Of a stretch of 64,000 nt of DNA, positions 913-21,171 are shown piece by piece. The translations under genes and the position numbers were made by a program. Numbering within the stretch: position 1 is the first letter of the stretch; each line of letters begins with the position of its first letter. This DNA is from an uncultured delta proteobacterium (GTDB taxonomy: Bacteria; Myxococcota_A; Polyangia; Polyangiales; Polyangiaceae), in assembly GCA_963839305.1 (NCBI GenBank), contig CAWIUL010000011.1, positions 2,441,561 to 2,505,560 of the forward strand. Direction: 5' to 3'. The notes under the pieces are model-generated. The model saw nothing but the letters and a program-made list of their open reading frames with translations. It ran no database searches and was not told where the DNA came from.

Positions 913-3444
913 TCAGCCGCCGAGTTGTGAGAGCAGCTCGCGCGCGCGCTCGAGCGTGTGGTCCTCGTCGATGGCGCGCTTCAGGAGCATCGCGGCCTTC
1001 TTCGCGTCGCCTTGGTGCATCGCGATTTCGCCGAGGCGCTCGTACGCGACGCCCTTCGAGATCGGCGCGGCGGTGCGGAGCATCGTGATCGCGCGGAGCG
1101 CGCGCGTCGCGAGGTCGAGCTCTCCCTCCGCGAGCGCGACGTGGGCGAGCTCCGACGCGACGATGCCGTTCTGGCCGTCCATGTCGAGCGCGAGGGTGAA
1201 CGCTTGCATCGCGCCCTTCGGGTTGCCGAGCGCCGTCTCGAGGCGGCCGAGGCGCAGGTGGATCTGCGCGAGGTCGCGCGAGCGGCGGCCTTTTTGCGCG
1301 GCGACGCAGGTCTGTAGGAGCTCGCGCGCCTCGTCGAAGCGCTGCGCCGCGATGTGCGCGTCCGCGAGGAGGCCCGTGCACTCCATGTCGGCGGGCTTGA
1401 TGGCGCGCGCTTCCTCGAGCGCGGACGCCGCGGCGGCGGGGTCTTGCTCGAGGAGCGTCGTGCCTGCCGCGACGAGCATCTCGAAGCGCCGCGCGGGGTC
1501 GGTGGCGGCGCGCGCTTCGGCGAGGCGGAGCTCCGCGAGCTCGCGGTGCGCGCCGATCGCCGCGTAGACCGCCGAGAGCTTCTCGAGCACGCGATCGTCG
1601 GTGGGCGCGGCCGCGCGGGCCCGCTCGAGCGCATCGCGCGCATAGCCCGGGTTCTGCGCTTGCGTCGCGGCGTCCGCGAGCTTGAGCGCGACCTCGACGA
1701 GCTTTTCGCCCGACTCGAGCTCGAGCAAGCGCGCGTACGTGTCGCTCGCGGTGTCGAAGCGGCCCGCCGACTCTTCGAGGCGCGCCATCGCCCAGAGGGT
1801 CTCGGTGTCCGCGTCGTCGACCGAGAGGAGCAGCTCGAGCTGCGCGTGCGCCTCGTCGAGGCGGTTCGCGGACGCGTAGAGCTCGGCGACGCGGCGACGG
1901 AGCGCCTTCTGCGCGCTCGCGTCGGCCGTGGTGTCGGCGGCGCGCGCGAGGACCGCGAGGAGCAGATCGCGACCGCCGTTGGGATCTTGCGCGTGCACGC
2001 GCTCGGCGTCGGCGATGGCTTCGTCGTTTCGACCGAGGCCGACGAGGACTCGCGCTCGCGCCGCGAGCACGTATGGATCGGGCGCTTTCTCCGCGAGCGC
2101 GCCGAGCTCGCTCGCGGCCTGCTCGTCGCCGCGACGCTCGAGCACCATCACGAGCCCCGCGAGGATCTCGCCATCGTTCGGGTCGATGTCGTACGCCGCG
2201 CGATACGCGCGCGCCGCCGATTCGACCTCGCCGAGCTCCGAGTAGAGCCCAGCAGCGGAGAGGAGCTCTGCGCGAGCGCGAGCGGGATCGAGCGCGCGCG
2301 CGGCGGTCTCCTTGAGCGCGGCGAGCTTGCGACGATCGCCGCGGTCTTCGTAGATCGACGCGAGGCGGTTTCGCAGCTCGACGCTGCCCGGATACGCCGC
2401 GATGCCGATTTCGAGCGTGCGCTCGACGCCAGCGTCGTCCCACTGCTCCGCGCGGAACGAGACGAGCTCGAGGGCGAGCTGCTCGGCGGCATCGCCCTGC
2501 TCGGTCTCGAGGAGGCGCTCCATGAGGTCGGCGCGCTCGGCCGCGTCGCCATCCTCGAGGAGCCTTCGCATCGCGAGGAGCAGCGAGCGGTTCTTCGGCT
2601 CCCAGTCGAGACCGGAGACGTAGAGCTCACGCGCGCGCGGGCCATCGCTCGACTCGATGATCGACCCGAGGCGAAGCGAGAGCACGGCGACCCCAGAACC
2701 GTCCTGGCGATCTTTGGCGGCGTCGAGCTGGCGCTCGAGGAGCGCCGCGAGCTCGCTCGTCTCGCCGGCCGCTTCGAGGAGCTCCGCGAGGAGCGCGACC
2801 GCGTGTGCGTCGTAGGGCTCCTCGTCGAGGAGAGCGCGAAGGTCCGCGATCACCTCGTCGCGGCGCTCGGTCTTGGTCGCGAGGACGCGCGCTCGCTCGC
2901 GACGGAGGGCGCGGCGCTCGGCTTCGTCGGTGACGGAGGGTAGGAGCGCCTCGACGATCTCGACGAGCGCGTCGGCGTCGCCGGTCGTTCGAAGGAGCTC
3001 GAGAAGCCCGGCGCGCGCGGACGCGTCGCTCGGATCCGCGAGGGCGATCTCGCGCCTCGCGCGGAGCTCGATCGCGACGTCGCCGATCTGACGAGCGCGT
3101 GTCGCGACGCCCTCGCGCAAGCGACGCGCGCCTTCGAGGTCGCAGTGCGGTCCCGCCTCGAGCTCGAGCGCGAGGCCTTCCGCGACTTCGCCGCGCGCCG
3201 ACGCGAGCGCCGCGAGCTCGAGGAGAGCCCAACGGAGCACCTCGCTCTCGCCTCGCGCTTGCGCGACGACTCGGCCCAAGAACGCCTCGGCGCGCTTGCC
3301 GTCGCCGGCTTGCAGCATGAGCGTCGCCGCCTCGCGCAGCGTCGCGAGAGACGCGCCTTCGTCTTCGGCCTGGAGCGTCACGGCGCGTTGGACGAGGTCG
3401 GGGCGTCCGGTGAGGCGCGCTGCGCGCACGAAGACGTCGAGCAT
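913..3444 (-). CDS. giant TPR/solenoid repeat protein, C-terminal segment (probably continuous with the two upstream segments)
   Basis: 843-aa ORF rich in A/L/E/R helical repeats with TPR-like periodicity. Its frame stays open upstream of the first Met, and the upstream ORF reads as junk from ~3465, so a frame break is likely. Confidence 0.6.
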   Translation of the reverse strand: MLDVFVRAARLTGRPDLVQRAVTLQAEDEGASLATLREAATLMLQAGDGKRAEAFLGRVVAQARGESEVLRWALLELAALASARGEVAEGLALELEAGPHCDLEGARRLREGVATRARQIGDVAIELRARREIALADPSDASARAGLLELLRTTGDADALVEIVEALLPSVTDEAERRALRRERARVLATKTERRDEVIADLRALLDEEPYDAHAVALLAELLEAAGETSELAALLERQLDAAKDRQDGSGVAVLSLRLGSIIESSDGPRARELYVSGLDWEPKNRSLLLAMRRLLEDGDAAERADLMERLLETEQGDAAEQLALELVSFRAEQWDDAGVERTLEIGIAAYPGSVELRNRLASIYEDRGDRRKLAALKETAARALDPARARAELLSAAGLYSELGEVESAARAYRAAYDIDPNDGEILAGLVMVLERRGDEQAASELGALAEKAPDPYVLAARARVLVGLGRNDEAIADAERVHAQDPNGGRDLLLAVLARAADTTADASAQKALRRRVAELYASANRLDEAHAQLELLLSVDDADTETLWAMARLEESAGRFDTASDTYARLLELESGEKLVEVALKLADAATQAQNPGYARDALERARAAAPTDDRVLEKLSAVYAAIGAHRELAELRLAEARAATDPARRFEMLVAAGTTLLEQDPAAAASALEEARAIKPADMECTGLLADAHIAAQRFDEARELLQTCVAAQKGRRSRDLAQIHLRLGRLETALGNPKGAMQAFTLALDMDGQNGIVASELAHVALAEGELDLATRALRAITMLRTAAPISKGVAYERLGEIAMHQGDAKKAAMLLKRAIDEDHTLERARELLSQLGG

Positions 3445-6400
3445 CGCGCGCGTCGCGCGGCCGCCAGGAAATCGCCCCGTCCGCGATCGTCGCCGCGCGC
3501 TCCGCGTCGGGAGCGAGGTCGAGCGCGGTCGAGAGCGAGCGCGCCGCGTCGTCGACGGTCGCGTCCTTGCGCGCGCGAAGGTCCGCGAGCCTGTAGAGGA
3601 TGTCGCTGGCAGCGCGCGGGTCGCGCGACGTGCTCTCGACCTCGAGGGCCGCGAGCTCCGAGAGCGTGGCCTCTTGGCTCTCCGCGTCGCCGAGCGTCGC
3701 GTAGACGCGATCGAGCGCGCGGAGCACGTCGACCGCCATCGCGCCCGTCTTCTTCGCGCGCACGAGGATCTCCGCCGCGCGAGACGCGCCGCCCTCCGAG
3801 CGCGCGAGCGCGTCGCCGGCCCGCAAGAGGAGCGAGCACGAGGTGCGCGCGTCGTTCGACGCGGTCGCGCGGTCCGCGAGCGAGGTGACCGTCTCGATGT
3901 ACGCGTCGGTCTTGCCGAGCTTCGTCGCGAGCGCCATCGCGGCGTCGTGCGCGGGCGCCGACGACGGAACCTCCGCGAGCGCGTCGAGGTACGCGCGAAG
4001 CGCCGCCTCGTGATCTCCGAGCTCGTCGTGCGAGCGCGCGAGCTCTGCGAGCACCTCCGCGCGAGCCTCGGACGACTGCGCGCGCTCGAGCCGCGAGCGG
4101 AGCGAGCGCAAGAGCCCCTGCGTGTTTCCCCGCGTGCGGAGGGCCTTCTCGAGCCGCTTGGCCTCCGCGTCGGACGTCGCGGCGGTCTCGAAGGCGGACT
4201 CGATGATCTCCGCCGCGCGCTCGGGCTCGCCCTGACGCTCCGCGAGCGCCGCGAGCTCCACGAGCACCTCGGTGCGAAGCACGGGCGCGTCGTCCTCGGC
4301 GCGTCGCACGACGGCGAGCAGCGCGCGATACGAGCGCTCGGCCTTGTCGAGCTGCCCGTCGTCGCGCGCGAGCTCGGCGACCATGCGCAAGATCTCCGGA
4401 TTGGCCGGATCGATGCGCGTCGCGGCCTCGAGCTCCGCGAGCGCCTGCGCGCGCTCGCCGATTCGGAGGTGCAATCGCGCGAGGTAGAAGTGGACGGTGG
4501 CGCGCTCCTTGGGGCGACGCCCCGCGAACGCGTCGATCATCTCGCGCAAGAGCGCGCGCGCGCGATCGGGGCTCCCGGCGTCTTGCAGCGCCTCGGCGAG
4601 GCGGAGCTTCAGCGGGCGATCGTCGGGCGCGAGCGCGCAGGCTTGCTCGAGCAGCGGCACCGCTCGATCCGGCTGCGCGCATCGACCGAGGAAGATATCG
4701 GCGGCCTCGACGAGGAGCGCGCGGCGATCGGCGTCGGTCTTGGCGCCCTCGGCTTGACGCGCGATGAGCTCGCCGAGCGGCGCGAACTGCGACGTGCGCC
4801 GGTAGATGGCCGCGAGCCGCTGCGCGACGTCCGCGGGCGAGCTCGGATCCGCCATCGCGGCTTCGAGGCGCTCTTGCGCGGCGTCGTCGCGGCCGCCCTT
4901 CGAGAACGCGTCGGCGAGGCGCACGATGACCGCGGCGCGCTGCTCGGGGAACTCGCGCACGAGGCGGTCGAGGTTCGCCGCAGCGTCGACCCACTCGGAT
5001 TGGTGCTCGTGGATGCGCGCGATGGCGTCGAGGAGCTGCGCGCGAAGCTCGAGCGCGAGCGCGCGTTTGTAGTGCGAGAGCGCGAGCGCCCAGTGACCGA
5101 GCTTCTCTTCGGCGATGCTCGCAGCGCGCGACCAGAGCTCGACCGCAGAGAGCGCGTCGCCGTCGGCCTCCGCGAGCCCCGCTTGCTCGGCGCAGAACGC
5201 CGAGAGCTCGTCCCAGTGCCCTGCGCCTTCGAGCGTCTCCGAGAGGACGAGCGTCGTTCGCGCGTGGCGCGGCGCGTCGACGAGGTTGTCCCGCAGGCTC
5301 GTCGTGGCTTCGTCGATGCGACCGAGCTCGCGCTCGAGCAACGCGGCCTCCAGGCGGTGCGCGACGCGGACCGCGGCCTCGCTCGCGACGGCGATCTGCT
5401 TCTTGCGAACCGCGAGGAGATCGTCCTTGCGTCCGAGCGACGCGTAGACGTCCGCGAGGCGAGACGCGGCCTCGTCGTCGCGAGGCTCCTCTTCGAAGAG
5501 CCGCGCGTAGAGGCGCTGAGCGGCCTGCGCGTCGCCGACGCAATCGAGCGCGGTGCGACCGGCCTCGTGGAGCAGCTCGCGCGAGCGCTCGCGCGTGAAG
5601 GGCAGCTTGGCTGCGCTCTCGAGGAGCTCGACGATCCGCTCGGCGTTGCCCTCTTCGTTGTGGACGCGCAAGAGCTCGGCGAGCGCCCACTCGACGTGCT
5701 CGCTCGGATGTCCCGACGGACCCACGCTCGGAGGAGCTTCGCCCGGCGACAACGTGGCCGGCGCTTGCTCGTCGGACGACGTCCACCGCTCGGACGCGAG
5801 CTTCAAGAGGCGATCGAGGATGCTCTTGGCGAGCCCGCAATCGACGACGACGCGCGCCGCGACCTCCGCGGCCTCGTGCAGGAGCTCGGGATCGCCGCCC
5901 GTGGCTTGCGACAGGCGCAAGAGGCTGTCGATCAGCGGACGTCCGCGGTGACGGCGCTGGAGCTGCGCGAGCTGCGCGAGCAAGCGCGTGTCGTTCGGGT
6001 CGTGCGTGAGGGCGCGCGCGTACGCGGCCTCGGCGGCCTCGGCGTCGGCGCGGCGGTCACGGTGCCACGTCGCGAGACGCGCTTCGAGATCGCGCGCGGC
6101 CTCGCGCGGGAGCTCCGTGCGCTGCGCGATGGCAGCCTCGAACGCGGCGGTGAGCGCGTCCCACCCCGCGTGCGCGGACGCCGCGTCTTCGAGCGCGTGA
6201 ACGAGCGTCTCGTCGGGTCCACCGCCGGCGTCCGAATCGCGCCGCCGCTCGGAGGCGGCGACCGCGCGATCGAGCACCAGCGTTGCCGCGGCGTCCCACC
6301 GGGCGACGCGCCCAGCGACGCGGATCAGCGAGAGCGCCGCGTCGGCGTTCGTCGGCTCGTCGTTCGCGACGCGCGTGAACTGAACCAGCGCGCCGCGCGG

Positions 6401-7960
6401 ATCGTCGAGGTGCGTCTCGAGCAGCGCGCCGAGCTTCGTGCGAAGCCGGAGGACGTCCGCGTCGTCGTTCTTGCGCGAGCCCTCGAGGCCCTCGAGCACG
6501 GCGCGGTGCGCGTCTGCGAACGCGCGGTACACGTCGGGGGCGCCCGCGGCCGCCGCCGCGTCGGAGAGCCGCTCGGCCGTCGCGGCCACTTCCGCCACGC
6601 CACCGGCGATCGTGAAGGCCTCACGCGACGCGTGGAACGCCGCCTCGAGATCGTTCGCTCGCTTCTCGAAGAGCTCCGCGGTCTGGAGCAAGTTCGCGAC
6701 GCGCTCGTCGTCGTCCTTTGCGAGGCGAAGTCGCTGCGGAAGGAGCGCGACGATCTTCTGCCACGCGTCGGTCGCCGAGTGATCGCTCAAGAGCACGTCG
6801 AGCGCCTTGCGCGCCGCGCTCTTCACGTCGAGGAGCGCGGTCAACCCGGTGAACGCTTGCGCGTCGCCGGGCCGCGCGTCGAGCGCTTGCGCGTAGCTCT
6901 CGATCGCGCGCTTCGGCTCGTCGAGCTTGGCGCGCTGCACGTCACCGAGGCGCGCGAGGAGCGACGACTTGGTCTCGCGGTCTTCATGACGCTCGGACGC
7001 GCGGGCGAGGAGCTCCGCGAGATCCTTCCAGCGCTCGCGCTGCTCGTAGAGCTCGGCGAGCGCGGCGTCCGCGTCGTCGGCATCGCCGCTCGCCTCGCGG
7101 ACGTTCTGCCAGACGTCGATCGCCTCGTCGGGCGCGTCGAGCTCCGTCGAGAGGATGCGCGCCGCGCGAACGCGGTCCTCGCGGCTCGCGGCCGCGTCCT
7201 TGCGCACGCTCGCGCGCTTCAAGAGCGCGTCGACCAGCGCACGCACCTTGCCCGCGGACACGAGCACGTCGACGAGCCCGTCGAGCGCCTCGAGATCTTC
7301 CGTGTCGTCCTTGAGGCGCGTCTCCCACGCCGTGACGCTGCGCTCGTTCTCGCCGATTTGCGCGGCGAGGCGCGCGGCCTCGCCGAGCGCGGCGCGACGC
7401 GCGGTCGCGTCGTCTTCTTCGAGCGTCGCGAGGCGCTCGAGCACCGGGAGGCGATCCGCCTTTCGGTCCGACGCCGCGAGGAGCGCGTCGAGCCGGCGAG
7501 CGGCCAAGAGCTGCGACGCGGCCGACACGTCGAGGTGGAGGACGCGGCCCAGGAGATCGATCGCGCGAGGCGCGTCACCGAGCTTGTCCGCGTAGACTGC
7601 GGCAGAGTCGAGGAGCAGCGTGGCGCGAAGCTCGTCGCCCTCGCAGTCGTCCGCAGCAGACGCGAGGACCTCGGCGAGGCGATCGAATCGATTCGCCTTC
7701 TCCGCGAGGCGCGCGAGGCGCTCGCGGTGCGTGTTCGCGTCCGGATCGAGCATCACGAGCGACACGGCGTGCTCGAGCGCGGCGGCGTCGTTTCCGAGCC
7801 GTTCGTGGAGCGCGGCGACCTCGCCGTGGCGGCGAATGCGCTCCTTTGCGTTCTTCACGGCCTCGAGCTCGACCTCGAGCATGCGCGCGAGATCTGCCTC
7901 GCGCGTGAGCTCGGCGTAACGCTCGCGAAGGAGCGACGCCGCGCGCTGACGAACGAGCAC
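2627..7960 (-). CDS. giant TPR-repeat protein, middle segment (credible coding ~3466..8040; tail 2627..3465 reads out of frame)
   Basis: 1777-aa ORF with a GTG start and no convincing RBS. TPR-like content runs to about ...ERAATIADGAIS, then ~280 aa of Arg-rich wrong-frame composition. Confidence 0.55.
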   Translation of the reverse strand: MLVRQRAASLLRERYAELTREADLARMLEVELEAVKNAKERIRRHGEVAALHERLGNDAAALEHAVSLVMLDPDANTHRERLARLAEKANRFDRLAEVLASAADDCEGDELRATLLLDSAAVYADKLGDAPRAIDLLGRVLHLDVSAASQLLAARRLDALLAASDRKADRLPVLERLATLEEDDATARRAALGEAARLAAQIGENERSVTAWETRLKDDTEDLEALDGLVDVLVSAGKVRALVDALLKRASVRKDAAASREDRVRAARILSTELDAPDEAIDVWQNVREASGDADDADAALAELYEQRERWKDLAELLARASERHEDRETKSSLLARLGDVQRAKLDEPKRAIESYAQALDARPGDAQAFTGLTALLDVKSAARKALDVLLSDHSATDAWQKIVALLPQRLRLAKDDDERVANLLQTAELFEKRANDLEAAFHASREAFTIAGGVAEVAATAERLSDAAAAAGAPDVYRAFADAHRAVLEGLEGSRKNDDADVLRLRTKLGALLETHLDDPRGALVQFTRVANDEPTNADAALSLIRVAGRVARWDAAATLVLDRAVAASERRRDSDAGGGPDETLVHALEDAASAHAGWDALTAAFEAAIAQRTELPREAARDLEARLATWHRDRRADAEAAEAAYARALTHDPNDTRLLAQLAQLQRRHRGRPLIDSLLRLSQATGGDPELLHEAAEVAARVVVDCGLAKSILDRLLKLASERWTSSDEQAPATLSPGEAPPSVGPSGHPSEHVEWALAELLRVHNEEGNAERIVELLESAAKLPFTRERSRELLHEAGRTALDCVGDAQAAQRLYARLFEEEPRDDEAASRLADVYASLGRKDDLLAVRKKQIAVASEAAVRVAHRLEAALLERELGRIDEATTSLRDNLVDAPRHARTTLVLSETLEGAGHWDELSAFCAEQAGLAEADGDALSAVELWSRAASIAEEKLGHWALALSHYKRALALELRAQLLDAIARIHEHQSEWVDAAANLDRLVREFPEQRAAVIVRLADAFSKGGRDDAAQERLEAAMADPSSPADVAQRLAAIYRRTSQFAPLGELIARQAEGAKTDADRRALLVEAADIFLGRCAQPDRAVPLLEQACALAPDDRPLKLRLAEALQDAGSPDRARALLREMIDAFAGRRPKERATVHFYLARLHLRIGERAQALAELEAATRIDPANPEILRMVAELARDDGQLDKAERSYRALLAVVRRAEDDAPVLRTEVLVELAALAERQGEPERAAEIIESAFETAATSDAEAKRLEKALRTRGNTQGLLRSLRSRLERAQSSEARAEVLAELARSHDELGDHEAALRAYLDALAEVPSSAPAHDAAMALATKLGKTDAYIETVTSLADRATASNDARTSCSLLLRAGDALARSEGGASRAAEILVRAKKTGAMAVDVLRALDRVYATLGDAESQEATLSELAALEVESTSRDPRAASDILYRLADLRARKDATVDDAARSLSTALDLAPDAERAATIADGAISWRPRDARDARRLRARSAPHRTPRPRPTRRDAPGRRRRRVSRDAARGGDAHAASRRRQARRGVLGPSRRASARRERGAPLGSPRARGARVGARRSRGRPRARARGGTALRPRRRASLARGRRDTRSSDRRRRDRAPREARDRPRGSERRVRARRASRAPSNDRRRRRARRDRRGAPTLRHRRSRAPRPPSRASARPRDQDRAPRRGDRGPSRSPRRGALRRTRGRAPRGAPRSGRRDERARGAPRAPARRRQRSPGRFWGRRALASPRVDHRVERWPARA

Positions 7961-10900
7961 GCGCTTGTTTCCGCGCTTCCCGCCGCCCGTGGGCGGAACG
8001 GAGCGCGCGCGGCGGAACGGACGCGCGCGGCGGCGGCATGCTGTCGTGCGCGGCGGCGACGCGCTCGCTCACCGCGGAGCCGGTCGGCGGCAGCGTCTTC
8101 TTCATCTCCTCGCCGACGGGAGCGGTGGAGAGCACGCGCTCGAGCAGGCCGATGACGTCGTCGCCGTTCTGGCCCGCCTGCATCATCTCTTCGACGACGA
8201 GGAGCGCCGAGCCCGCGTCGCCGAGCTCGTCGAGCCACAGCGTGGCCATGCGAACGCGGAGGGCGTGCGCGTCCGGCGGGGGCTGTCCGCCGAGCTGCGC
8301 GCCGAGCAGGCCGATCAAATCGCGGTACTTGCCGTGGCGCTCGTAGAGACGCTCGAGCGACGCGAGCAATCGCTCGTTCTTCGGCTTGTAGTGGAGGAGC
8401 TGCTCGAGGTAGCCAATCGCGCGCTCCGCGTTCTTGGCGAAGTCTTTCGCGATCTGCGCGGCGTCCTCGAGGAGCTCGGTGCGGCGCGTCTCTTCGAGCT
8501 CGCCTCCGAGCACGCGATCGTAGAGCGTGAAGAGCTCGTCCCACCGCTCCTGCGAGTCGTAGAGGAGCTTGAGCCGATCGAAGGCCCAGCCCGCCGGGTC
8601 GATGTCCACCATCCGCTCGAGGATGCGGACCACGGCGGCCGCGTCGTCGAACCACTCTTCGTGGAACGCGACGGCGCGCTGCCCGAGCTCGATCGCGTCC
8701 TCGACCGCGATCGGCTTGCCCATGGCGGCTTGGTAGAGATCCGACAGGTCTTGCGGGCGATCGAGCGCGCGCGCGAGCTGCTCGGCGCGATCCCACCACG
8801 CGAGCTCCGTGGGAAGCTCGGCGAGCGCGCGGAGCAGGACGCCATACGCTTCGTCCTGCGACTCGACGAGATCGAGCAGCTGGCCGTGCCACGCGCGACG
8901 GCGATCGACAGGGGCCTCGATCGCGCTCGCGACGAGCGCCGCGAGGACGCGCTTGCGACCCTTCGCGTCTGCGCTCTCGAGCGACGCCTCGAGGAGCTTC
9001 GAAGCCTCCGGGCCGATCTCTTCGTGCGGAAGGAGCTTCACGAGGAGGCGCAGCGCGGCCTCGTCGTCCGAACGCTGCGAGAGCGCGGCGCGGATCTCGG
9101 TCATCGCGTCCGCCTCGCGGCCGGGGATCGACGCGAGGAGACCCGCGACCTCGGCGCGCAGCCGCGACGCGGCCTCGCCCTCGGCTCGAGCGAGGCGAGC
9201 GCGGAGCGTTCCGAGCGCGCCCTCGACGTCGCCGGTCGCGATCATCAAGCGAGCGATCTCGGCGTGCGGCTCCGCGGAGTCGGGCTCGAGCTCCGCGGCT
9301 TGTTTCCAGAGATCGATCGCGCGAGACGCGTCGCCGAGCTTCTCTTCCTCGAGCCGCGCAAAGCGTCCGAGCGCCGCGACGCGCGCGCCGCCTTCCGCGC
9401 CAGACGCGCGCCACCCGAGGAGCCAGCGCCACGACTCGGCCTCTTCGCGCGGCTCACGCTGGGCGAGGAGTGTCTCGAAGCGATCCGCCGCGCGCGCCTT
9501 CGTCTCTGGCTCCGAGTGGCGATCCTCGAGGACCTCGCGCAAGAGCTCCCGCGCTTCGTCCCTGCGCGACTCGTCGGCCGCGAGGACGTCGGCCTTGGCC
9601 GCGACGATGCGCGCGCGCACGGACGGATCGCGCCCGACCTCGCCCGAGAGCGCGCTCTCGAGCGTCTTCAGAAGCGCGCCGCTCGCCTCCGCGGCGATCC
9701 CGAGCTCGGTGAGCTTCACGAGGGTCGCCGCGTCGTCAGGCGCTTCGAGGAACGCGCGCGCCGCCGCGTCGAAGGCGCCGGGCGCGTCGTTCATGCGCGT
9801 CCGGAGCACGTCCGCGAGCTTGAGCAGCGCGTCCTTGCGCTCGACGCCGCTCGACGCCGACTCGACCAGCGCGGCGTAGAGCTCGGGCAGCGACGACCAG
9901 TCGCCGCTCGTCTCGACGAGCGACGCGAGCCGCTCGGTGGCCGTGCGATCGAAGGGCGCGCCGCGACGAATGCGCTCGTAGAGCTTGCGGGCGGTCTTGC
10001 GATCGCCCATCTCCTCGGCCGCGCGCGCGCCGTCTCGCCACGCGACGGCCGCAGCAGCAGCGTCTCCGCGCTCGTGTTGCAGCGTGCCGAGGCGCGTGAA
10101 CCAGAAGACCTTGTCTTCGCCCGAGTCCGCGAGCTCGACGCGCTTCGCCGCGGCGATCACGAGCAAGCTCGGGTCGTCTGCGCGCTCGGCGACCTGCTCG
10201 ACGAGGTCGAGATCCGCGTTCGTCGCGAACGCGTCCTCCGCGAGGGCCTTGGCGTGGACGACCGCGCGAGCGCGAAGCCCTCGCTCGGACGCGAGCCGCG
10301 CGAGGCGCGTGCGGAGCAGTCGCTCTTCCTCGCCCGGCGGCGTTCGCGTGAGGCGCTGCTCGAGGAGCGCGCACGCGTCGGGGAACGCGCCAGCCTCGCA
10401 GTAGAGCTCGAAGAGCGCGTCCTCGGTGGCGTCGTCGGATCCTTCGGCGAGGCTCGCGCGGAGCGTCTCGATGGCGCCGCCGCCGTCGCCGAGGTCCTTG
10501 CGCTGGAGGTTCGCGATCGCGAGGTGCAGACCTCGACGCTTCTCCGTGTGCGTCTCTCTCCCGAGCGCCGCGCGATAGAGGCGCACGCGATCGTGCGGCG
10601 TCCCCTGCTCGCGCAGGAGCAAGTCGACGCCCGCCATCAGCTCGGGCGAAGACGGCGCGAACTCGAGCGCGCGTTTGTACGCGTCGAGCGCGCGCGCACG
10701 ATCGCCCGCGACGAGCGCCGCGTCTCCGAGCCCTTGCGCGACCGCGAGGAGCTCGTTCGACGTCACGGGTTTGTCGCCGAGCGCGAGCGCGAGCACGTCG
10801 GCGCGCGCGCCTGCTCCACCCTCGCCTGGCGAGAGACGGTCGAGCGCGGCGATCCACGGCTCGACCGGCCGCGACTCGTCGAGCGCCTGCGCGAGCGCCG

Positions 10901-13062
10901 CGCGAACGAGGCCGAGCACGCGACCACGCTCGCTCGGGAGGCTCTCGGCGAGCGCCACGGCGCCTTCGAGCGCGTGCGTTCGCTCTTCGACGCTCGCGGC
11001 CCCGTTCGCCCGCGCGAGCAGCACGCGCAAGACGCCCGCCCTCGAGCCCTCGGAGCGATAAATCGGATCGAGCACTTCCGCGGCGGCGACCGCGAGCGGC
11101 GCGTCGGTCCCGTCGAGGAGCTGCTCCATCGCCTCGCGCGACATCGAGTCGTGCGGGTCGATCGAGAGCGCCTCGCGGAACGCGTCGACCGCGCCGCGGG
11201 AGTCGCCGAGCCACTGCATGCGCAAGAGGCCGAGCCGCGCGAGCGTCTCCACCTTCTCGCCGCCGTGCTCTTGCTTCGCGAGCGCCTCGTACGCCGTGGC
11301 GAGCGTGTTGAAATCGCGCTCGATCTCGAGCAGCGGAATCCAGCGCCGGAGGACCTCTTTCGTCGGCCCGAACTGCTCGACGATCTCGCGCCACGCGCTC
11401 GAAGCGGCTTGGTGGTGACCGGAAATCTCCGTCAGCTGCTCGGCAGCGCGCACGAGGAGAGCGTGCTTCGTCTCGCGCGAGGGCGCGTCGTTCGCCTTCG
11501 CGCGCAGGATCTCGGCGAGCCCCACCGCGTCGCCGAGCGACGACAAGAGCGGCTCGAGGGCGTCGAGCGCCCGAGCGCGCGCGGGCGTGTCGAGCAATCC
11601 GCGGTACGCCGAGACGGCGCGCGCGGGATCGCCGAGCGCGCCCGACGCGAGCTCCGCGAGCTGCTCGGCGGCCTGCTGCCGGCGCACGACGTCGGGCTCG
11701 GTGCGAACGATGCGCTCGAGCATCTCGGCGAGCGACACGTGGTCTTCGTCCTCGACGTAGAGCCGCGCGAGCGCGTGCATCGCGGGCAGCACGGCGAGCT
11801 CCGAGGCGCCGGGGACGGTGAGCGCGCTCGAGAACGCGGCGCGCGCGCGCTTCACGTCGCCCGTCGCGAGGAGGAGCTCGCCCATCTCGGCCGCGAGCCT
11901 CGCGCGCACCGACGCGTCCTTCACCCCGCTGACGAGACGCTGGAGGACCTTCTGCGCCGCCTCGTGCTTTCCGAGCGCGCGCGTGAGCTGGATGTAGCGC
12001 TCGAGGAGATCGTTGTCGGTCGCGTCGATCTGGATCGCCTGCTCGGCCGCTTCGTAAGCGCCGGCCATGTCCTCGAGGTGGTCTTGACGGATCGCCGCCA
12101 GCGCTCGAAGCGGGCCGAAGCGCCGCGGGCCGCGCGCGCTCTCGAGCTCGAGCGTGTAGTAGCGAACGGCGTCGCTCCACGCGTTTTGCTTCTCCGCGGC
12201 CGCCGCGAGCGCCGCTGCGGCGCGCTGCGCGCTCGCCTTCACCTCGAGCAAGCGAAGCCCGAGGCTCTTGGCGCCCTCGTGCCCCGGCGCGCGCCCGAGC
12301 AGCCACTCGACGTGTGGGAGGGAGCGCTCGATCTCGTTCGTCTCGTCGTAGAGCGCGAGCAGCTTCGTGCGATGGGCGAACGCCTCGTCGTCGGCGAGCG
12401 CTTCGTTGCCGAGCGCCTGCTCGAGCATCTTCGCGACGTCCTTCGGTCGCCCCGCGTGGAGGAGCGCGTTCTCGAGCTTGGAGCGCGCGTCTTCGTCCTT
12501 CGGATCGACGCGGACGATCATCTGGAGCACGTCGGCGAGCCGGTCGCCGGCCTCGCCCTTCTCGAACGCCTCGGCCGCCTTTCGAAGCAGCGGCGCCTGC
12601 TCGGCTCGCGGGCGGTGCTGGGCGAGCTCGAAGTAGAAGTCGCCGAGCTTGCGGAACTCTCCGGCCTTCGTGAGGTTGTGCTCGAACCGCTGCGATCGAT
12701 CCGGCGTGCGTCGGCATCGCCGACATCGCGCGATCCAGGTAGCTCGCGGCGCCCACGTCGTCGCCCATCACGTCGGCGAAGAAGATCGACGACTGGAACA
12801 TGAACTCCGCGACGACCCCCGCCTGGAGGGTTCGCAGCTTTCGATCCGCGGCGAGGCCTTCGAACGCGAAGGCGAGCTCGGTGACGCGGTCGTCGCGCTT
12901 GGCCGCTTCGTGCAGCTTGTCCCAGGCTTCTTTCGGAAGCTGGTTTCGCGCGAGAGCCAGGAGGAACGCGTCGAGAACTTCGGTTTCGTTTTCGAGACGT
13001 TGATCGAGCGCGTCGATCACCGCAGTGACACCTGCAGCACCCCGTCGAGTCGGTTCGCTCAT
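7575..13062 (-). CDS. giant TPR-repeat protein, N-terminal segment (start ATG ~13062; frame break ~12715; 3' ~465 nt beyond ~8040 out of frame)
   Basis: MSEPTRRGAAGVTAVIDALDQRLENETEV... is read in one frame to ~12720. It then continues in the listed 1651-aa ORF frame as RFEHNLTKAGEFRKLGDFYFELAQ.... The C-terminal ~150 aa of that ORF is Arg-rich junk. Confidence 0.55.
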
Positions 13063-13139: not shown

Positions 13140-14405
13140 TCAGGTCACGAGCGTCGCGTCCGTGCGATACGGGCCGGAATTCGGGGATCGCGAGCCGATC
13201 GAGCCCGCCGCTCGCGTCGCGATGACGACGCCGATGCCGGTGAGGACGACGCCGAGCGTGACGATGCCGTTCACGAACGGAATGGCGCCGCTCACGAGGA
13301 AGAGCACGCAGCCGACGAGCAAGTGGACGTGCGGGTTGTCGCTCTTGTGGCCGATGAGGGCCTTGCCCACGGTCGCGAGCACCGCGCAGATGCCCGCGTA
13401 CGCCGCGAAGACGCCGCCGAGGAGGAGCACGACCGCGACCGGAATGCCGATCACCGTGATCGCGATGAGCACGCACGCGACGAGGAAGATCAATCCGCCG
13501 ACGATGCCGAGCGCGAACGAGCGCATCGGGCGCGAGGCAGCCTCGACGCGGAGCTTGTTCATCTTGTCTCCCGCGAGCGCGAAGAGGATCGCGCCGAACA
13601 CGAAGAGCATCGCGGCGCGCGTGGTCGCGTCGCTCACTTCGCGGAGGATCGAGCGCGACCCCGTCGAGCTCGACCCGATGCGAACGTCGTCGCGCTTGTG
13701 CACCGCGCCGCCGACCTTCGAGCCTTTGTGGCGGTCGAGCGAGCCTCCGACGACGCCCACGTCGCCGTCGACCTGCGCGCCGTCCGCGACGTCGATCGAG
13801 CCGCCGATGGCGGTCGCGTTCCCGACGACGTGCGCGCCCGGCTTCACGGACGCACTGCCGCCGAGGACCGTCACGTTTCCGGTCGCGGTTCCGAGGATCG
13901 TGACGGAGCCGCCGAACACGGTGACGTCGTGCACGGTCTCGTCCGCGCCGACGACGAGGTCGCCGCCGTGGACGACGCGGTCCTCGCCGCGCGTCGTCGC
14001 GACGGGCGCTGCGACGATCGCGGGCGGCGGCGTTGGAACCGGCGGAGCGCTGACGGCAGCCGAAACGGGCGGTGTAGTCGCGGGAGCGCTCGAGATCGTG
14101 ATGAGCGAGCCGTCGCGCTTCGCGACGAACTCGCCGTCGCCGAGGATCACGTCGAGCACCTTGTCGGCGGGTTGATCGGTCATGTGCAGATCCATCGGCT
14201 TGCCGTCGCCGACGTCGCGCAGGACGACGCTCCACCCCGCCTCCTTCGCGAGTCGCATGATCGCGTCTGTCCGCGAGACGTGCGTCGCGTCCATCGTCAC
14301 GTGCTTGCTCTCGGGCCAGTCGCCCTCGTGGCGCACCTGCGCGAACGCGGCGCTCGACGCGAGCGCGAGACCGAGGAACAGAGCGGAAAAGACGTTGCGT
14401 TTCAT
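13140..14405 (-). CDS. secreted/membrane protein: signal peptide, STN-like domain, Pro-rich linker, bactofilin/DUF4097-like beta-helix repeats, C-terminal TM helices
   Basis: MKRNVFSALFLGLALASSAAFA signal peptide. Repeats VFGGSVTILGTATGNVTVLGGSASV...GDVGVVGGS. Hydrophobic C-terminus. ATGA overlap with the upstream anti-sigma gene. Confidence 0.6.
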   Translation of the reverse strand: MKRNVFSALFLGLALASSAAFAQVRHEGDWPESKHVTMDATHVSRTDAIMRLAKEAGWSVVLRDVGDGKPMDLHMTDQPADKVLDVILGDGEFVAKRDGSLITISSAPATTPPVSAAVSAPPVPTPPPAIVAAPVATTRGEDRVVHGGDLVVGADETVHDVTVFGGSVTILGTATGNVTVLGGSASVKPGAHVVGNATAIGGSIDVADGAQVDGDVGVVGGSLDRHKGSKVGGAVHKRDDVRIGSSSTGSRSILREVSDATTRAAMLFVFGAILFALAGDKMNKLRVEAASRPMRSFALGIVGGLIFLVACVLIAITVIGIPVAVVLLLGGVFAAYAGICAVLATVGKALIGHKSDNPHVHLLVGCVLFLVSGAIPFVNGIVTLGVVLTGIGVVIATRAAGSIGSRSPNSGPYRTDATLVT

Positions 14406-14905
14406 GACGAGGCTCCGGTTCTTTCACGAGAGACGCGCGCGACCGCATAACCGAGCAGCGCGAGCGTGAAGGTGGCGACGAGCGAGACGCTGGAGGAGAC
14501 GCCCTTTCCGAGCGCCAGCGCCGAGGTGGTGACGACCGCCGCGATCTGCGGCGCCGAGGTGATCCAGCTGACGACGTGAGGGAGCGCGTCGAGCGCAGCG
14601 GGCGCTCCCGCGACGACCGCGACGATCACGGCAGCCGCGACGAGCACGGTCGGAAATCGATGGGTCGCAGGCGCGCGTTGATGGATGCGCAACTGGCGCC
14701 CGACGACGAGCGCCGCGCCGACCTCGTGCGACTCGAGCGCCATGGCCCCGATGCGAAGCATGCACTCTGCACACGTCTCGGCGTGCACGCGCGCGACGGG
14801 GTCGATGACGTCTTGCGCGTCGGCGAGGCACGAGAGCGCGAGCTCGGTCAGGTGCTCGCCGCTCCAGGTTTCTGCCTCGGAGAGCTTCTGTTCTTCTGGT
14901 TTCAT
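14402..14905 (-). CDS. anti-sigma factor (zinc-binding HxxxCxxC type, membrane-anchored)
   Basis: MKPEEQKL...HAETCAECMLRIGAM followed by TM segments. GGAGAGGAGAG RBS. Start overlaps the sigma-gene stop (ATGA). Confidence 0.6.
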   Translation of the reverse strand: MKPEEQKLSEAETWSGEHLTELALSCLADAQDVIDPVARVHAETCAECMLRIGAMALESHEVGAALVVGRQLRIHQRAPATHRFPTVLVAAAVIVAVVAGAPAALDALPHVVSWITSAPQIAAVVTTSALALGKGVSSSVSLVATFTLALLGYAVARVSRERTGASS

Positions 14906-15516
14906 CCGTCTCTCCTCTCCGCGAGCGTGGCCGCGAGCGCCTTGCGGCCGCGCAGAATCCAGGTCGCGACGGTGCCCATCGGCACCCCGAGCCTCTTGCC
15001 GATCTCGACGTACGAGAGCCCCTCGATGAAGAAGAGCACCACGGCCTCGCGCTGTTTGTCGGGGAGCTCGCCGAGCGCCTTCTCGAGCCGCACGACCTCT
15101 TGAGAGCGCGCCGCGCGATCGAAGGGCGACGGCTTCGAGTCGGGGATGCGATCCGCGAGGTCGGGCGTGGAGGTCGACTCGGGCGCCGGCTCGTTCGCTC
15201 GGCGTTTGAGGGCGCGCGTGCGGCTGCGCGCCGTGTCGAGCGCGACGTGCTTCACGATGCCGACGATCCACGCGCGGATCGACTCGCCCGGCCGAATGCG
15301 CGCGCGCCCCTCGATCGCGCGCCGCATCGTCTCGCTCACGGCGTCCTCGACGTCGGGGTGCTCGGGTGTGACGTGCAGCACGGTCGCGGCGACGGCGCGG
15401 AGCAGCGGCCTCAGCTCGGCCGCCTCGCGCGCAAACACCTCGATGGATGCCGCCGACGTCACGGGGTCGATCTTGCCCCTCGGCGGGGGCGCTGCAAAGA
15501 AGGCGGCGGCGAGCAT
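14902..15516 (-). CDS. ECF (sigma-70 family) RNA polymerase sigma factor
   Basis: Region 2 (LRPLLRAVAATVL...DAVSETMRRAIEG) and region 4 (EALGELPDKQREAVVLFFIEGLSYVEIGKRLGVPMGTVATWILRGRKAL) motifs. Confidence 0.8.
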   Translation of the reverse strand: MLAAAFFAAPPPRGKIDPVTSAASIEVFAREAAELRPLLRAVAATVLHVTPEHPDVEDAVSETMRRAIEGRARIRPGESIRAWIVGIVKHVALDTARSRTRALKRRANEPAPESTSTPDLADRIPDSKPSPFDRAARSQEVVRLEKALGELPDKQREAVVLFFIEGLSYVEIGKRLGVPMGTVATWILRGRKALAATLAERRDG

Positions 15517-15559
15517 CCTTTTCGATGCTTCGACCGAGCCCTCGCGTTTATTTCACCGA

Positions 15560-16051
15560 TCAGCCGCACATGATCGAGTTGTTGCAGAGCGGGATGTGGC
15601 TGAAGCTCCCCGTCACGATCGTCTGATCGGGCAAAACCAGCGAAAACGAGCCTGAAGCCGCGGTCTTGGTGAATTCCGTGAGGGTGAACGAGCCGTGGGT
15701 AGCGGCGACGCACTGGGTCGTGCCTCCGGTGGGGCAATAAGCGGCCAGCGAGCCGGATGGGAACGTCCCGTCGCCCACGGCGTACGTGCCCGGTGCGCTC
15801 GGAGGCGGGCCCCAGAACGAGATTCGAACGCTCCCCTCGCCCACGACCGAGTTCGCGCACGAGGGAACGACGGTCGCTCCAGGGAAGGCGAGCGCGAACG
15901 CGATCGCGAGCCCGTCGTTCGGCGCGCAGTCGTTGACCACGACGCCTTGCAGCTGCGGCTGCGACGCGTCTTCCGTTTGCGAGGCGTGCCCGCCGCCGAG
16001 ATCGGTGCGTCCACCGCACGCGACCAGCAAGAGCGCGAACCGAAGCCTCAC
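15560..16051 (-). CDS. small Cys-rich lipoprotein
   Basis: GTG start overlapping the aminotransferase stop (GTGA). Signal peptide with LLLVACGG lipobox. Confidence 0.5.
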   Translation of the reverse strand: MRLRFALLLVACGGRTDLGGGHASQTEDASQPQLQGVVVNDCAPNDGLAIAFALAFPGATVVPSCANSVVGEGSVRISFWGPPPSAPGTYAVGDGTFPSGSLAAYCPTGGTTQCVAATHGSFTLTEFTKTAASGSFSLVLPDQTIVTGSFSHIPLCNNSIMCG

Positions 16052-17298
16052 GGCTTGAGCATACGCTCGAATCGATCGAGGGCTCGCTCGAGCGTCGCCT
16101 TCGGCGGGCCGAACGAGAAGCGCACGTAGTCGCGGAAGCGCGAGGCGCGCGCGCTCCGCCGCTTTCCAGGGTTCACGTCGAAGAACTCACCGGGCACGGT
16201 GATGACCTTCTGCTCGAGCGCCGCGCGGAAGAAGCTCATGCCGTCCGAGATCGGCTGCGGCAGCTGCGAGACGTTGCCCCAGACGTAGAACGTCCCGTCG
16301 GGCACTCGGTCGATGCGGACGCCGAGGCGCTCGAGGCGCGAGAGCAGCATGTCGCGCTTCTCGCGGAACGCGTTGTGGATCGCCCACGTCTCCTTCGTGA
16401 CGTGCTCCTCGCTCATGAGCGGGATCGCCGCGCGCTGGAGCGGCTTGCTCCCGCCGCCGTCGAGGAACGAGCCCGCGCTCGTGAGCGCCTCGATCACCTT
16501 CTTCGGCCCGAGCGCCCACGTCACGCGCCAGCCGGGGTAGCGCCAGTTCTTCGTGAGGCCGTCGAAGATCACGACCGGATCGTGATCGACGTCCTCGACG
16601 TAGCGCGCGGCGCTCTCGACCGGGAGCACGCCGGGCTTCGTTCGGTAGACGTAGTGCGAATAGAACTCGTCGAACATGAGCGAGCACTCGAGCTCGCGCG
16701 CGACGGAGACCCAGCGCGCGAGCTCCTCGCCCATCACCGCCTTGCCCGTCGGGTTGCACGGGTTCGAGAGCAAGATCGCCGAGAGCCCGCGCCCCATGAT
16801 CTCGCGCCGCAGATCTTCGTGCGAGAACGCGTAGCCGCGCTCGCCGTCGAGCATGATCGGGATCGCGGTGAACGCGCGGAAGATGTCGAGCAGCTCCTCG
16901 TACGCCGTGTAGTCCGGCAAGAAATGTCCGAGGTTGATCTGCGAGAGGCTCGCGGCGGCGCGCGTGAGCGCCATGCGACCGCCGCCCGAGACGCAAACGT
17001 TCTCCGCCGAGTACTGCGTGCGGAGGCCCTTCCTGTAGAGCACGTTGTAGAGGCTCGCGATCGCCTCGCGGAGCTCCCAGATGCCCGCGACCGGCGCGTA
17101 CTCCTGGTCGTCGACGTCGATCGTGACGTGCTCGACGCGCGGCGGCGCGCCCGCGAGCTGCCCCGTCTCCGGCTGGCCCTGCCCGAGGTTGCACCACTCC
17201 GCGTTCGTCTGCGAGAAGCCGAGGCGCGTCGCCTCCGAGGTGACGTAGATCACGCCCGTGCGAGGTACCGTTCGAAACGCCGCAAGCTCTTCGGCCAT
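16048..17298 (-). CDS. PLP-dependent aminotransferase, class I/II
   Basis: FDGLTKNWRYPGWRVTW (PLP-lysine region) and the overall aminotransferase fold motifs. Confidence 0.8.
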   Translation of the reverse strand: MAEELAAFRTVPRTGVIYVTSEATRLGFSQTNAEWCNLGQGQPETGQLAGAPPRVEHVTIDVDDQEYAPVAGIWELREAIASLYNVLYRKGLRTQYSAENVCVSGGGRMALTRAAASLSQINLGHFLPDYTAYEELLDIFRAFTAIPIMLDGERGYAFSHEDLRREIMGRGLSAILLSNPCNPTGKAVMGEELARWVSVARELECSLMFDEFYSHYVYRTKPGVLPVESAARYVEDVDHDPVVIFDGLTKNWRYPGWRVTWALGPKKVIEALTSAGSFLDGGGSKPLQRAAIPLMSEEHVTKETWAIHNAFREKRDMLLSRLERLGVRIDRVPDGTFYVWGNVSQLPQPISDGMSFFRAALEQKVITVPGEFFDVNPGKRRSARASRFRDYVRFSFGPPKATLERALDRFERMLKP

Positions 17299-17321: not shown

Positions 17322-17720
17322 TTAGAGAAAGCGCGCGCGGAGCTCGGGCGTCGGGACCATGCAGACGTCTTTCTTCCCGAAGACGCGATAGCGGTTCCGC
17401 GCGACGAGGTCGTAAACGGCGTCGCGGACGAAGCGCGGGACGACGACCGCCGCGTAGAGCAGCTTCCACGGCATTTTCAGGTGTTTCACGATGCGAAGCG
17501 CGGCGTCCGAGCGCTGGTGCGGCCCGGCGTCGTCGATGACGACGATGCTCGTCGGATCGCCCTCGGGGACCTTCAGCCCGTGCTCGCGCATGAGCTCGGC
17601 GCCCGCCTCGGACTGGATCGACGCAAAGCGAAAGTACGCGTCGCGATCGCGCGGGGCGATGAAGCGCACGGTCCCGCTGCAGAGGTTACACACGCCGTCG
17701 AAGAGCACGATCGCACTCAT
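17322..17720 (-). CDS. thiol-disulfide oxidoreductase, DCC family (DUF393)
   Basis: N-terminal LFDGVCNLCSG motif; ~130 aa. Confidence 0.75.
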   Translation of the reverse strand: MSAIVLFDGVCNLCSGTVRFIAPRDRDAYFRFASIQSEAGAELMREHGLKVPEGDPTSIVVIDDAGPHQRSDAALRIVKHLKMPWKLLYAAVVVPRFVRDAVYDLVARNRYRVFGKKDVCMVPTPELRARFL

Positions 17721-18170
17721 TCAGAACGTGAAGCTTAACCCCGCCCCGCCGGATGTCGCGATCGGAACGATGAGCGTCCGCGGCTTCTTCGGGAGCTTCT
17801 GGTGGTGCATCACCGTTCCGATGACGAGCATCGCGAGGCCCGTCGCTTGGGCGAGGCCGTCCACGACGAGCCCGATGCGCGCCCAGTTCTCGTCAGGCGC
17901 GCTCGGCGGGCGCACGGCGAGATCGATCCAAGGCCCGAAGATCGGGATGAAGAGCAGGCGGTCTTCGCCGTACGTGCTCGTCGTGGCGACGATGAGCGCG
18001 ACGCCCGTCGACAGCGCGAGCGTGACGGTGCCGGCGCCGATCAGCGGGATCCCCGCGCCGACGGGCACCTCGCGCCGCTCGACCACGACCTCCTGAGCAC
18101 GCGCGTCACGCGAGCTCGCGGTCGCCACGAGGACGATCGCGAGACACGCGAGTGACGTTGCGCTGTGCAC
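17721..18170 (-). CDS. hypothetical secreted/membrane protein
   Basis: Signal peptide and hydrophobic segments; ends ...LSFTF. Confidence 0.4.
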   Translation of the reverse strand: MHSATSLACLAIVLVATASSRDARAQEVVVERREVPVGAGIPLIGAGTVTLALSTGVALIVATTSTYGEDRLLFIPIFGPWIDLAVRPPSAPDENWARIGLVVDGLAQATGLAMLVIGTVMHHQKLPKKPRTLIVPIATSGGAGLSFTF

Positions 18171-18203
18171 GCACCTCGTCGATGCGAGCGCGATGCCAGC
18201 GCG

Positions 18204-19691
<1,488 letters not shown>

Positions 19692-19760
19692 ATTTTCCCC
19701 AGGGGGTTTGTGCGCCGGACGGGGTGCACGGTGTGTGCCATAGTGCCCGTGGCTAAGGAG

Positions 19761-20522
19761 ATGGCCGTGCTGTCTGATTTCGACCTCGAGTGGGAACGTT
19801 TGAAGGCCGTGCTGGCCGTGGTGGAACGCCACGCTGTCACGCGCGAGGAGCGCACGAAGGTGCTCGCGATCAAGCGCGCGCTGGAGGGCGACGACTTCGT
19901 GGGCGCGCTCTGCCACGATCTCAAAGATCCGCTCTCGGCGATCACGATGGGCGCTTCGCTCCTGAAGAAGCAGCTGCCGGAAGATCGCGCGCTTCACGCG
20001 GTCGTGAGCGCTGCGCGCCGGCTCGATCGCGTCGTTCAAAACGCGCGCGATCTCGAGATGCTCCGCGCGGCGAAGTTCACGCCCCAAGTCCGCGAGGTGC
20101 CGATCGCGTCGTTGCTCTTGCCCAGCGTCGAGCGCGCTCGCGCGGCTGCGAAGGCCAAGGGTGTGACGATCGCCTTCGAGGCAGCCGAGGCGCGCGCGAT
20201 CGTCGACGCGCACGCGACGGGTCGAGCGTTCGACGAGATCCTCGACAACTCCATCGGGTTCTCTCCAGAGGGCGCGACCGTGCGTGTGAGCGTCGAGCGA
20301 GACCGAATCGTCGTGGAGGACGACGGTCCCGGCATCGACGCCGCACACCTGCCCCACGTGTTCGACGAGACGAAGAACCGCGCGCACAGGCCGCGACGTG
20401 GCGCCGGCCGCGGCCTACCGCTCGCTCGCGAATACGCGCTCGCTCAAGGCGGCGAGCTCGATGTCAGCTCAGCCGAAGGCGCTGGCGTTCGCGTGATCCT
20501 CGCGCTGCGCACGGCCACGTAG
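19761..20522 (+). CDS. soluble sensor histidine kinase (HisKA + HATPase_c)
   Basis: AAGGAG RBS. H-box [12 protein letters not shown]-boxes DDGPGID and [18 protein letters not shown]. Divergent from the NtrC-type gene. Confidence 0.75.
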
Positions 20523-20574
20523 CGTTTAGCCTCGATCGTGACGATCGTGCGCGCACGCGTGAATCTGTCGCGTG

Positions 20575-20590
20575 TGGCATGGCCGCTGCA
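20575..20590 (+). promoter_or_regulatory. candidate sigma54 (-24/-12) promoter
   Basis: TGGCATGGCCGCTGCA matches TGGCACG-N4-TTGCA with correct GG/GC spacing, ~40 nt upstream of the DUF1328 ATG. Confidence 0.5.
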
Positions 20591-20632
20591 CGCTCGTGTG
20601 GCTGTCTTGGAGGAGAGAGAAAGGGATCAGTC

Positions 20633-20797
20633 ATGTTGTACTGGGCCGCAGTTTTCTTCGTAATTGCGCTCGTCGCAGCCGTGTTCGGCTTCGGTGGCAT
20701 CGCGGCAGGGGCCGCGGGCATCGCGAAGATTCTGTTTGTCGTGTTCCTCGCGCTGGCCGTGCTGTCGTTGGTGTTCAACCGACGCGTGCCGACCTGA
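20633..20797 (+). CDS. DUF1328/UPF0391 family small membrane protein
   Basis: [47 protein letters not shown]; strong GGAGGAGAGAGAAAGG RBS. Confidence 0.65.
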
Positions 20798-20799
20798 CG

Positions 20800-21153
20800 A
20801 TGACGTCCGCGACCGCCTCCGTGCTAACGGTTCTCTTCGTCGACGACGATTTGGACGCGGCGGAGTTATTTACGCTGCTCGCTGGCGGTCGCGGGCATCG
20901 CGTCCTTCACGCGAGGACCCTCGCGCAAGGACGCACGATGCTCGACGAGGCGGACATCCTCGTGACGGACGTGGAGCTCGGTGACGGCAACGGGCTCGAC
21001 CTGCTCTCGCTCGGTCGCCCCACCCGCCTTCGCCGCGCTTACGTGGTGACGGGACACTCTCACCTCGAAAAAGCAGCGAAGCTCGCGGGCTTCGACGGAT
21101 CGTTCACGAAGCCCGTCGATCCCGACACGCTGCTGCTCACCCTCGAGCACTGA
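20800..21153 (+). CDS. single-domain response regulator (CheY-like receiver)
   Basis: MTSATASVLTVLFVDDDLDAAE...ILVTDVELGDGNG...FTKPV receiver motifs. The listed ORF has a junk N-terminal extension. Confidence 0.7.
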   Translation: MTSATASVLTVLFVDDDLDAAELFTLLAGGRGHRVLHARTLAQGRTMLDEADILVTDVELGDGNGLDLLSLGRPTRLRRAYVVTGHSHLEKAAKLAGFDGSFTKPVDPDTLLLTLEH

Positions 21154-21171
21154 CGTAGCGATCCGCTACGT
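21153..21171 (+). terminator. short hairpin (8-bp stem, 3-nt loop) directly after the receiver gene stop
   Basis: ACGTAGCG-ATC-CGCTACGT perfect inverted repeat. Confidence 0.3.

Follow-up and report, generated by a model that had tools for sequence, protein, structure and literature searches.

We analysed a 64,000-nucleotide (nt) stretch of the genome of an uncultured Polyangiaceae bacterium (the window; contig CAWIUL010000011.1 of assembly GCA_963839305.1, G+C content ~72%). We conclude with good confidence that its minus strand from 13062 to 913 is one gene for an all-helical tetratricopeptide repeat (TPR) protein of ~4,048 residues, interrupted by three single-base insertions that are most likely long-read assembly errors. 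The gene adds one member to a Polyangia family that has been sequenced before but is uncharacterised. Dozens of related myxobacterial genomes have it intact, and the locus is most likely an ordinary gene with a commonplace artefact. A preliminary description of the same DNA had proposed a single protein of ~4000 amino acids (aa) broken by three frame shifts or, alternatively, two or three tandem paralogues. The first proposal was borne out, as orthologues bridge all junctions and the removal of three bases leaves 4,048 codons, and the second is contradicted by the intact orthologues, which are single open reading frames (ORFs).

Reading frames at the locus

Three TPR-like minus-strand ORFs had been listed in the preliminary description. 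All were found where it had placed them, and TPR_19, TPR_2, TPR_14, TPR_8 and other families exceeded their Pfam gathering scores in each of the three. The segments that make up the locus are as follows (L numbers denote homologous loci in other genomes, P numbers denote proteins, and GC3 is the G+C content at third codon positions).

913..3444, minus strand: listed ORF of 843 aa, start ATG
2627..7960, minus strand: listed ORF of 1777 aa, start GTG
7575..12530, minus strand: listed ORF of 1651 aa, start GTG
2627..3456, minus strand: wrong-frame tail of the 1777-aa ORF, 276 aa, 38% Arg, non-coding in that frame by GC3 phase and composition
7575..8002, minus strand: wrong-frame tail of the 1651-aa ORF, 143 aa, 35% Arg, non-coding in that frame by GC3 phase and composition
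12692..13062, minus strand: segment 1, the N-terminus MSEPTRRG...THAGSIA, codon third-position phase 1; L002 (76% identity) stays in a single frame throughout residues 1-1406

The GC3 plot placed the high-GC third codon position in phase 1 across 913..~3450, in phase 2 across ~3450..~8040, in phase 0 across ~8040..~12720 and in phase 1 again across ~12780..13062. There were thus three frame changes along 13062..913, none of them with a stop codon. The stop-to-stop ORFs overlap (913..4536, 2627..8068 and 7575..12767), and at the three junctions no stop codon closes the credible coding part of any piece. The Arg-rich ORF ends that the preliminary description had considered wrong-frame sequence proved to be so, with 35-38% Arg in the tails against 10.4% in the real, repaired protein. 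It was also correct in starting the protein at ATG 13062 in another frame, which forms a fourth reading segment. Its join at ~12715 did not hold, and DNA alignment puts the join at 12691.

The GC3 frame plot together with orthologue bridging located the breaks to single-base resolution, with the residual ambiguity given for each.

12691, minus strand: frame break 1, a single inserted A (coding strand); in the DNA alignment the window has ATCGC[A]GCGG and L002 has ATCGC-GCGC
~8003 (ambiguous within 8003..8010), minus strand: frame break 2, one extra C in a GCGCGCG run in the second repeat unit; window CCGCGCGCG[C]TCCGTTCC versus L008 CCGCGCGCG-TCCGTCCC
7992..8028, minus strand: ancestral in-frame 18-nt tandem repeat, RASVPP-RASVPP (units 8028..8011 and 8010..7992), the second unit being 19 nt in the window
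~3457 (ambiguous within ~3452..3460), minus strand: frame break 3, a single base inserted into the GC run GGCCGCGCGACGCGCGCG; in the DNA alignment L002 reads ...AIGRGASTGAMLDVFVRAARL... in frame
913..13062, minus strand: whole gene, ATG 13062, stop 915..913, one conceptual ORF of 4,048 codons once the three inserted bases are removed

The sequence as given therefore carries three frame breaks, and three single-base removals restore an ORF with zero internal stops, its sole stop lying at the very end. The peptides that span the junctions of the repaired protein are ...GSIARFEHN..., ...RASVPPRASVPPTGGGK... and ...AISWRPATRAMLDVF.... The junction at 12691 is conserved in six intact orthologues; the tandem-repeat region, PPRASVPPRASVPP, is read in frame by L008 (77% identity) and L007; and the ATG at 3444, the listed start of the 843-aa ORF, is a conserved internal Met. 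A 19-nt tandem duplication was considered as the cause of the break near 8000 and rejected, as L008 and L007 have an in-frame 18-nt duplication and the window differs by one extra base only.

Orthologues and two-part architecture

A protein search with the middle ORF returned hundreds of proteins from Polyangia that hardly vary in length (~2,580-2,620 aa). When homologues of 2,573-2,607 aa were placed on the window by tblastn, they were collinear across frames -3, -1 and -2: residues ~1-265 matched 8855..8100 in frame -3, residues ~265-1727 matched 7954..3485 in frame -1, and residues ~1740-2597 matched 3444..919 in frame -2. This collinearity over three frames means that a single conserved gene is interrupted at both places, near 8000 and near 3450. 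The conserved core has its N-terminus at ~8850, inside the 1651-aa ORF and with no change of frame from the sequence before it, and the gene has two parts.

916..8849, minus strand: conserved core of ~2,640 aa, corresponding to the short-form proteins of ~2,600 aa (e.g. P0019 from Paraliomyxa and P0059 from Minicystis), from tblastn and the family alignment A1
8850..13062, minus strand: N-terminal TPR extension of ~1,400 aa, restricted to the long-form clade

The boundary between extension and core at ~8850 is open in frame (phase 0) in the window itself, and likewise in L002, L003, L004, L005 and 40 intact loci. In L001 the extension also lies directly upstream of the core, but with a frame change of its own in the homologous linker. 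The extension segment (13062..8850) has fewer homologues than the core, with 39 matches in a protein search, and is weakly similar to the N-terminal third of the core (25% identity, E = 5e-8), a resemblance suggestive of an ancient partial duplication.

A genome scan that used exact peptide words of the middle ORF gave no confirmed relative, and the family alignment was required. The genome scan with A1 yielded 79 loci, of which the complete ones were sorted into a long and a short form, and tblastn against the 79 loci agreed with long-form family membership. Extension and core formed one intact ORF in 40 complete long-form loci (median 4,082 codons stop to stop, range ~4,000-4,130), including the finished Labilithrix luteola DSM 27648 chromosome and many metagenome-assembled genomes (MAGs) from short reads. 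The alignment to Myxococcota orthologues that the preliminary description had suggested thus returned single ORFs. A further 18 complete loci of the short form, with the core only, were intact (median 2,635 codons) and came from Sandaracinaceae, Paraliomyxa and Enhygromyxa. Protein searches, which returned no protein above 2,625 aa, had hinted that no intact form of ~4,000 aa exists; the genome loci disproved this.

The repaired protein was collinear end to end with six intact ORFs (4,026-4,070 aa) over 3,958-4,013 positions at 41-57% identity, and residues were conserved on either side of every repaired junction and across the extension/core boundary. The N-terminal junction (12691) and the junction near 3450 are read in a single frame by L002, and the junction near 8000 by L001, L003, L007 and L008. 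The L. luteola gene (NZ_CP012333.1; L011, 5528..17905) is a single ORF of ~4,032 aa from its likely Met. This Polyangiaceae long form has the same two-part architecture and conserves the extension/core boundary as well as all three window junctions; it is intact, whereas the window copy has three single-base insertions. The short-form Polyangia proteins P0019 (Paraliomyxa miuraensis, 2,599 aa) and P0059 (Minicystis rosea, 2,573 aa) align with the core over their whole length at 32-40% identity and differ in being without the ~1,400-aa N-terminal extension.

Origin of the insertions

We propose that the insertions at 12691, ~8003 and ~3457 are most likely consensus errors of a Nanopore-only long-read metagenome assembly, and that gene callers working on the broken frame would have produced the three overlapping ORFs with false Arg-rich tails. 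Assembly error is the likely cause because the same kind of break occurs in unrelated genes of the window.

24970..27368, minus strand: GH31 glycoside hydrolase gene with two single-base insertions, at ~27284 (TTCGAT[C]CTCGG) and ~26700 (CGCAA[G]CACG)
~45350..46420, plus strand: lipoprotein-like gene with N-terminal signal peptide MKRFFSFAVFALFTLVSASALA and a break at ~45860..45925, a frame change in a poly-proline tract of CCG/CCT/CCC repeats
46427..49324, plus strand: tsaE-like ORF with no stop near its expected end at ~46850, open for ~826 more codons over the next gene (46809..49274)

The GH31 orthologue in L002 is an intact ORF of 806 aa. The shift in the poly-proline gene (-1 or +2) is opposite in direction to the other breaks, and the tsaE-like ORF without its expected stop may contain another indel.

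Among the complete TPR loci, broken copies were found in 4 of 7 Nanopore-only MFD MAGs; for the other assemblies the figure was 1 of 56 (Fisher p = 2.8e-4). Nanopore reads were the sole input to the assembly of the MFD MAGs, which had a single round of Medaka (PMC12313526). The break sites vary between relatives from this kind of assembly: they lie at 14640-16980 in L002, at ~8500, 9940 and 16660 in L001, and elsewhere in L008 and L074. A conserved break, hinted at by an L002 ORF of 1,658 aa, was rejected, as the L002 breaks fall in a separate patch of low quality. This patch of the L002 (= L006) MAG, at 14640..16980, shows roughly five changes of frame and numerous small indels relative to L008, L007 and the window.

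Alternatively, the insertions could be real mutations, in which case the giant TPR gene would be a very recent pseudogene or would be expressed as fragments, possibly as part of a wider decay that includes GH31. We regard this as unlikely. The GC3 signal and conservation are undiminished past every break, with even identity to L002 across the break-flanked segments (76%, 79% and 75%), and the repaired frame runs its whole length without internal stops. Moreover, like insertions are present in unrelated genes within the same 64 kb, the Nanopore-only sister MAGs are broken at other sites, and 55 of the 56 other assemblies are intact.

Several observations weigh against one gene broken by assembly error, and the first three of these favour real mutation. 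The distinction between error and mutation is an indirect one, drawn from assembled sequences. Three breaks in 12.15 kb are somewhat more than the 0.7-0.9 expected from the 3-4 breaks in the remaining 51.9 kb of the window, a marginal excess (Poisson P = 0.035-0.07). No aligned indel lies in a homopolymer longer than two bases; all five alignable indels are insertions, and only one of them (GH31, C to CC) lengthens a run of the same base. The classic Nanopore pattern is homopolymer deletion, unlike the indels seen here. The Nanopore/MFD origin of the window is itself taken from its nearest relatives (L002/L006 and L008). Finally, a recurrent-neighbour search of the 79 loci found no conserved operon partner across the TPR family, and the function proposed below is drawn from fold class only.

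A row of two to four tandem paralogous TPR genes, with chance overlap at their ends, would account for the separate proteins given by gene callers and public annotation (P0121, 1,648 aa; P0001, 1,605 aa) and for the weak resemblance of extension to core. Distant relatives (L004 and L005) also have the locus in two ORFs, but divided elsewhere and with ~500 core residues missing. However, the credible coding part of each piece has no terminating stop codon, the overlaps consist of 143-276 aa of wrong-frame sequence, and the orthologues are single ORFs straight through all junctions and the extension/core boundary. As each junction is single-frame in relatives and the three-base repair gives one ORF, we read the locus as a single gene and consider tandem paralogues very improbable.

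The two-ORF split of L004 and L005 was also examined as a shared real gene boundary and rejected, given its different position and the loss of ~500 core residues. Both loci (L004, 10001..20480; L005, 7688..18855) keep the extension, lack core residues ~600-1100 and are split in two there, into ORFs of 2031 and 1481 aa in L004 and of 2040 and 1615 aa in L005, which is reminiscent of the two-gene Sorangium homologue of GltI described below.

It is scarcely credible that the breaks are recoding sites, with the full-length protein recovered through transcriptional slippage or programmed +1 frameshifting on the ribosome: all three shifts are in the same direction, so that one base would have to be skipped at each, but none of the sites is shifted in any relative (the orthologues are in frame, without the extra base), a slippery motif common to the three sites is absent, and a like insertion is present in GH31. 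Programmed-frameshift genes of the prfB or dnaX type have a conserved shift site and a slippery motif, a combination not found at the three window sites.

Gene neighbourhood

The preliminary description had set the locus between glyQ and an ECF sigma/anti-sigma/bactofilin-like module. The glyQ gene is indeed on the same (minus) strand, with its ATG at 881, 31 nt past the TPR stop codon at 913-915. On the upstream side, the ECF sigma factor was confirmed by Pfam, and a 167-aa protein is a putative anti-sigma factor by position and synteny only. The bactofilin-like label is unsupported for the 421-aa protein, whose orthologue in L002 is precomputed as DUF8173.

14902..15516: ECF sigma factor gene, Pfam-confirmed
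13140..14405, minus strand: gene lying upstream of the TPR gene and encoding the 421-aa protein, with signal peptide MKRNVFSALFLGLALASSAAFA and no Pfam match in the window copy

L002 is fully syntenic at the locus (GH31, kinase, ECF sigma, anti-sigma, DUF8173, TPR, glyQ). The neighbourhood running from ECF sigma and DUF8173 to glyQ was found only in the nearest clade (L006, L007, L008, L010, L055 and L083). L006, L008 and L010 keep the module of ECF sigma, anti-sigma and 421-aa (DUF8173) genes, and L007, L055 and L083 have the same ECF sigma/DUF8173 module without a detectable anti-sigma match.

Different neighbours recur in the Labilithrix-like long-form loci (L009..L062), where convergent genes for J-domain (16 loci) and Hsp70-like (22 loci) proteins lie 1-3 kb downstream, with glutamate synthase genes recurring beyond them. 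Elsewhere in the window, ~4.3 kb (17719..22054) separate two blocks that are almost adjacent in L002 (5789/5822), reflecting either an insertion in the window lineage or a deletion in that of L002.

Protein properties and comparison with GltI

The repaired protein is rich in Ala (19%), Leu (14%), Arg (10%) and Glu (10%) and has TPR/ARM-like repeats along its whole length. No signal peptide or transmembrane segment was found in the 4,048 aa: the N-terminus is polar, and no 19-residue window has a Kyte-Doolittle hydropathy above 1.6. Searches of Pfam, NCBIfam and PDB gave no specific family assignment, only generic TPR matches, and those in NCBIfam and PDB were below family cut-offs. Solved generic TPR solenoids (consensus CTPR designs and the OGT TPR domain) showed local repeat likeness, with a best E of 2.4e-13 to CTPR-rv4 (7obi), but these matches span just 50-175-residue stretches and are uninformative on specific function.

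Public records give long-form members no name more specific than 'tetratricopeptide repeat protein' or 'hypothetical', and none has an experimentally known function. Two proteins of the family, P0059 (Minicystis rosea) and P0002 (Labilithrix sp.), were named 'Exonuclease SbcC' by their sources, other members being 'tetratricopeptide repeat protein'. No nuclease family was present among the Pfam and NCBIfam matches of the window protein, all of which were TPR/ARM-type repeat families. The SbcC name is probably an annotation error, and one that could propagate.

TPR solenoids generally act as platforms for protein-protein interaction. From its architecture and fold class only, we infer that the intact protein would be a very long cytoplasmic scaffold for protein-protein interactions, by analogy with GltI of Myxococcus. 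GltI/AgmK (MXAN_4863) of Myxococcus xanthus, a giant TPR protein located in the cytoplasm, belongs to the Agl-Glt focal-adhesion machinery for gliding. It is 3,822-4,132 aa in size, with Anaeromyxobacter and Stigmatella homologues of 4,074-4,104 aa, and it has been proposed to organise or scaffold several Agl-Glt motors (PMC11761067, PMC3169522). The window protein resembles it in length (4,048 aa), predicted cytoplasmic location, TPR content and phylum.

The gene for GltI lies in the glt G1 cluster beside gltG (FHA/TonB), gltH and gltJ, and its Sorangium counterpart is divided between sce2920 (1,774 aa) and sce2921 (2,081 aa), both inside that cluster. No such neighbours (FHA/TonB, GltJ-like) of the present family were found in the window or among the recurrent neighbours in the 79 loci. 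Protein searches with the middle ORF and the extension returned no protein named AgmK or GltI, and none longer than 2,625 aa. Membership in GltI is therefore not supported by gene context, and we keep GltI as an analogue. In view of the missing glt cluster context, the protein is not filed as GltI.

Implications for annotation and for the family

The public annotation of this genome contains at least two truncated proteins with false Arg-rich C-termini (P0121 and P0001), which pollute protein databases and mask the 4,048-residue protein. Very long genes are routinely split in high-G+C Nanopore-only MAGs, as the 4 of 7 versus 1 of 56 in the TPR family illustrate.

We consider improbable a different outcome in which the insertions, including those in GH31, are real and the lineage has just inactivated or broken up a 4,000-residue scaffold; as a separate element, this outcome has the intact family as a possible cytoplasmic platform of the GltI kind, serving some machine. 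If the insertions were real, they would point to selection having relaxed, or to a genome still decaying, in this uncultured myxobacterium from soil, and the protein lost would be one that almost all other Polyangia genomes examined keep intact.

With assembly error as the preferred explanation, the analysis delineates a conserved, uncharacterised family of giant TPR proteins in Polyangia, with a long form of ~4,050 aa and a short form of ~2,600 aa. Its GltI-like size and location make genetic work on the family a sensible choice in Labilithrix luteola, which can be cultivated.

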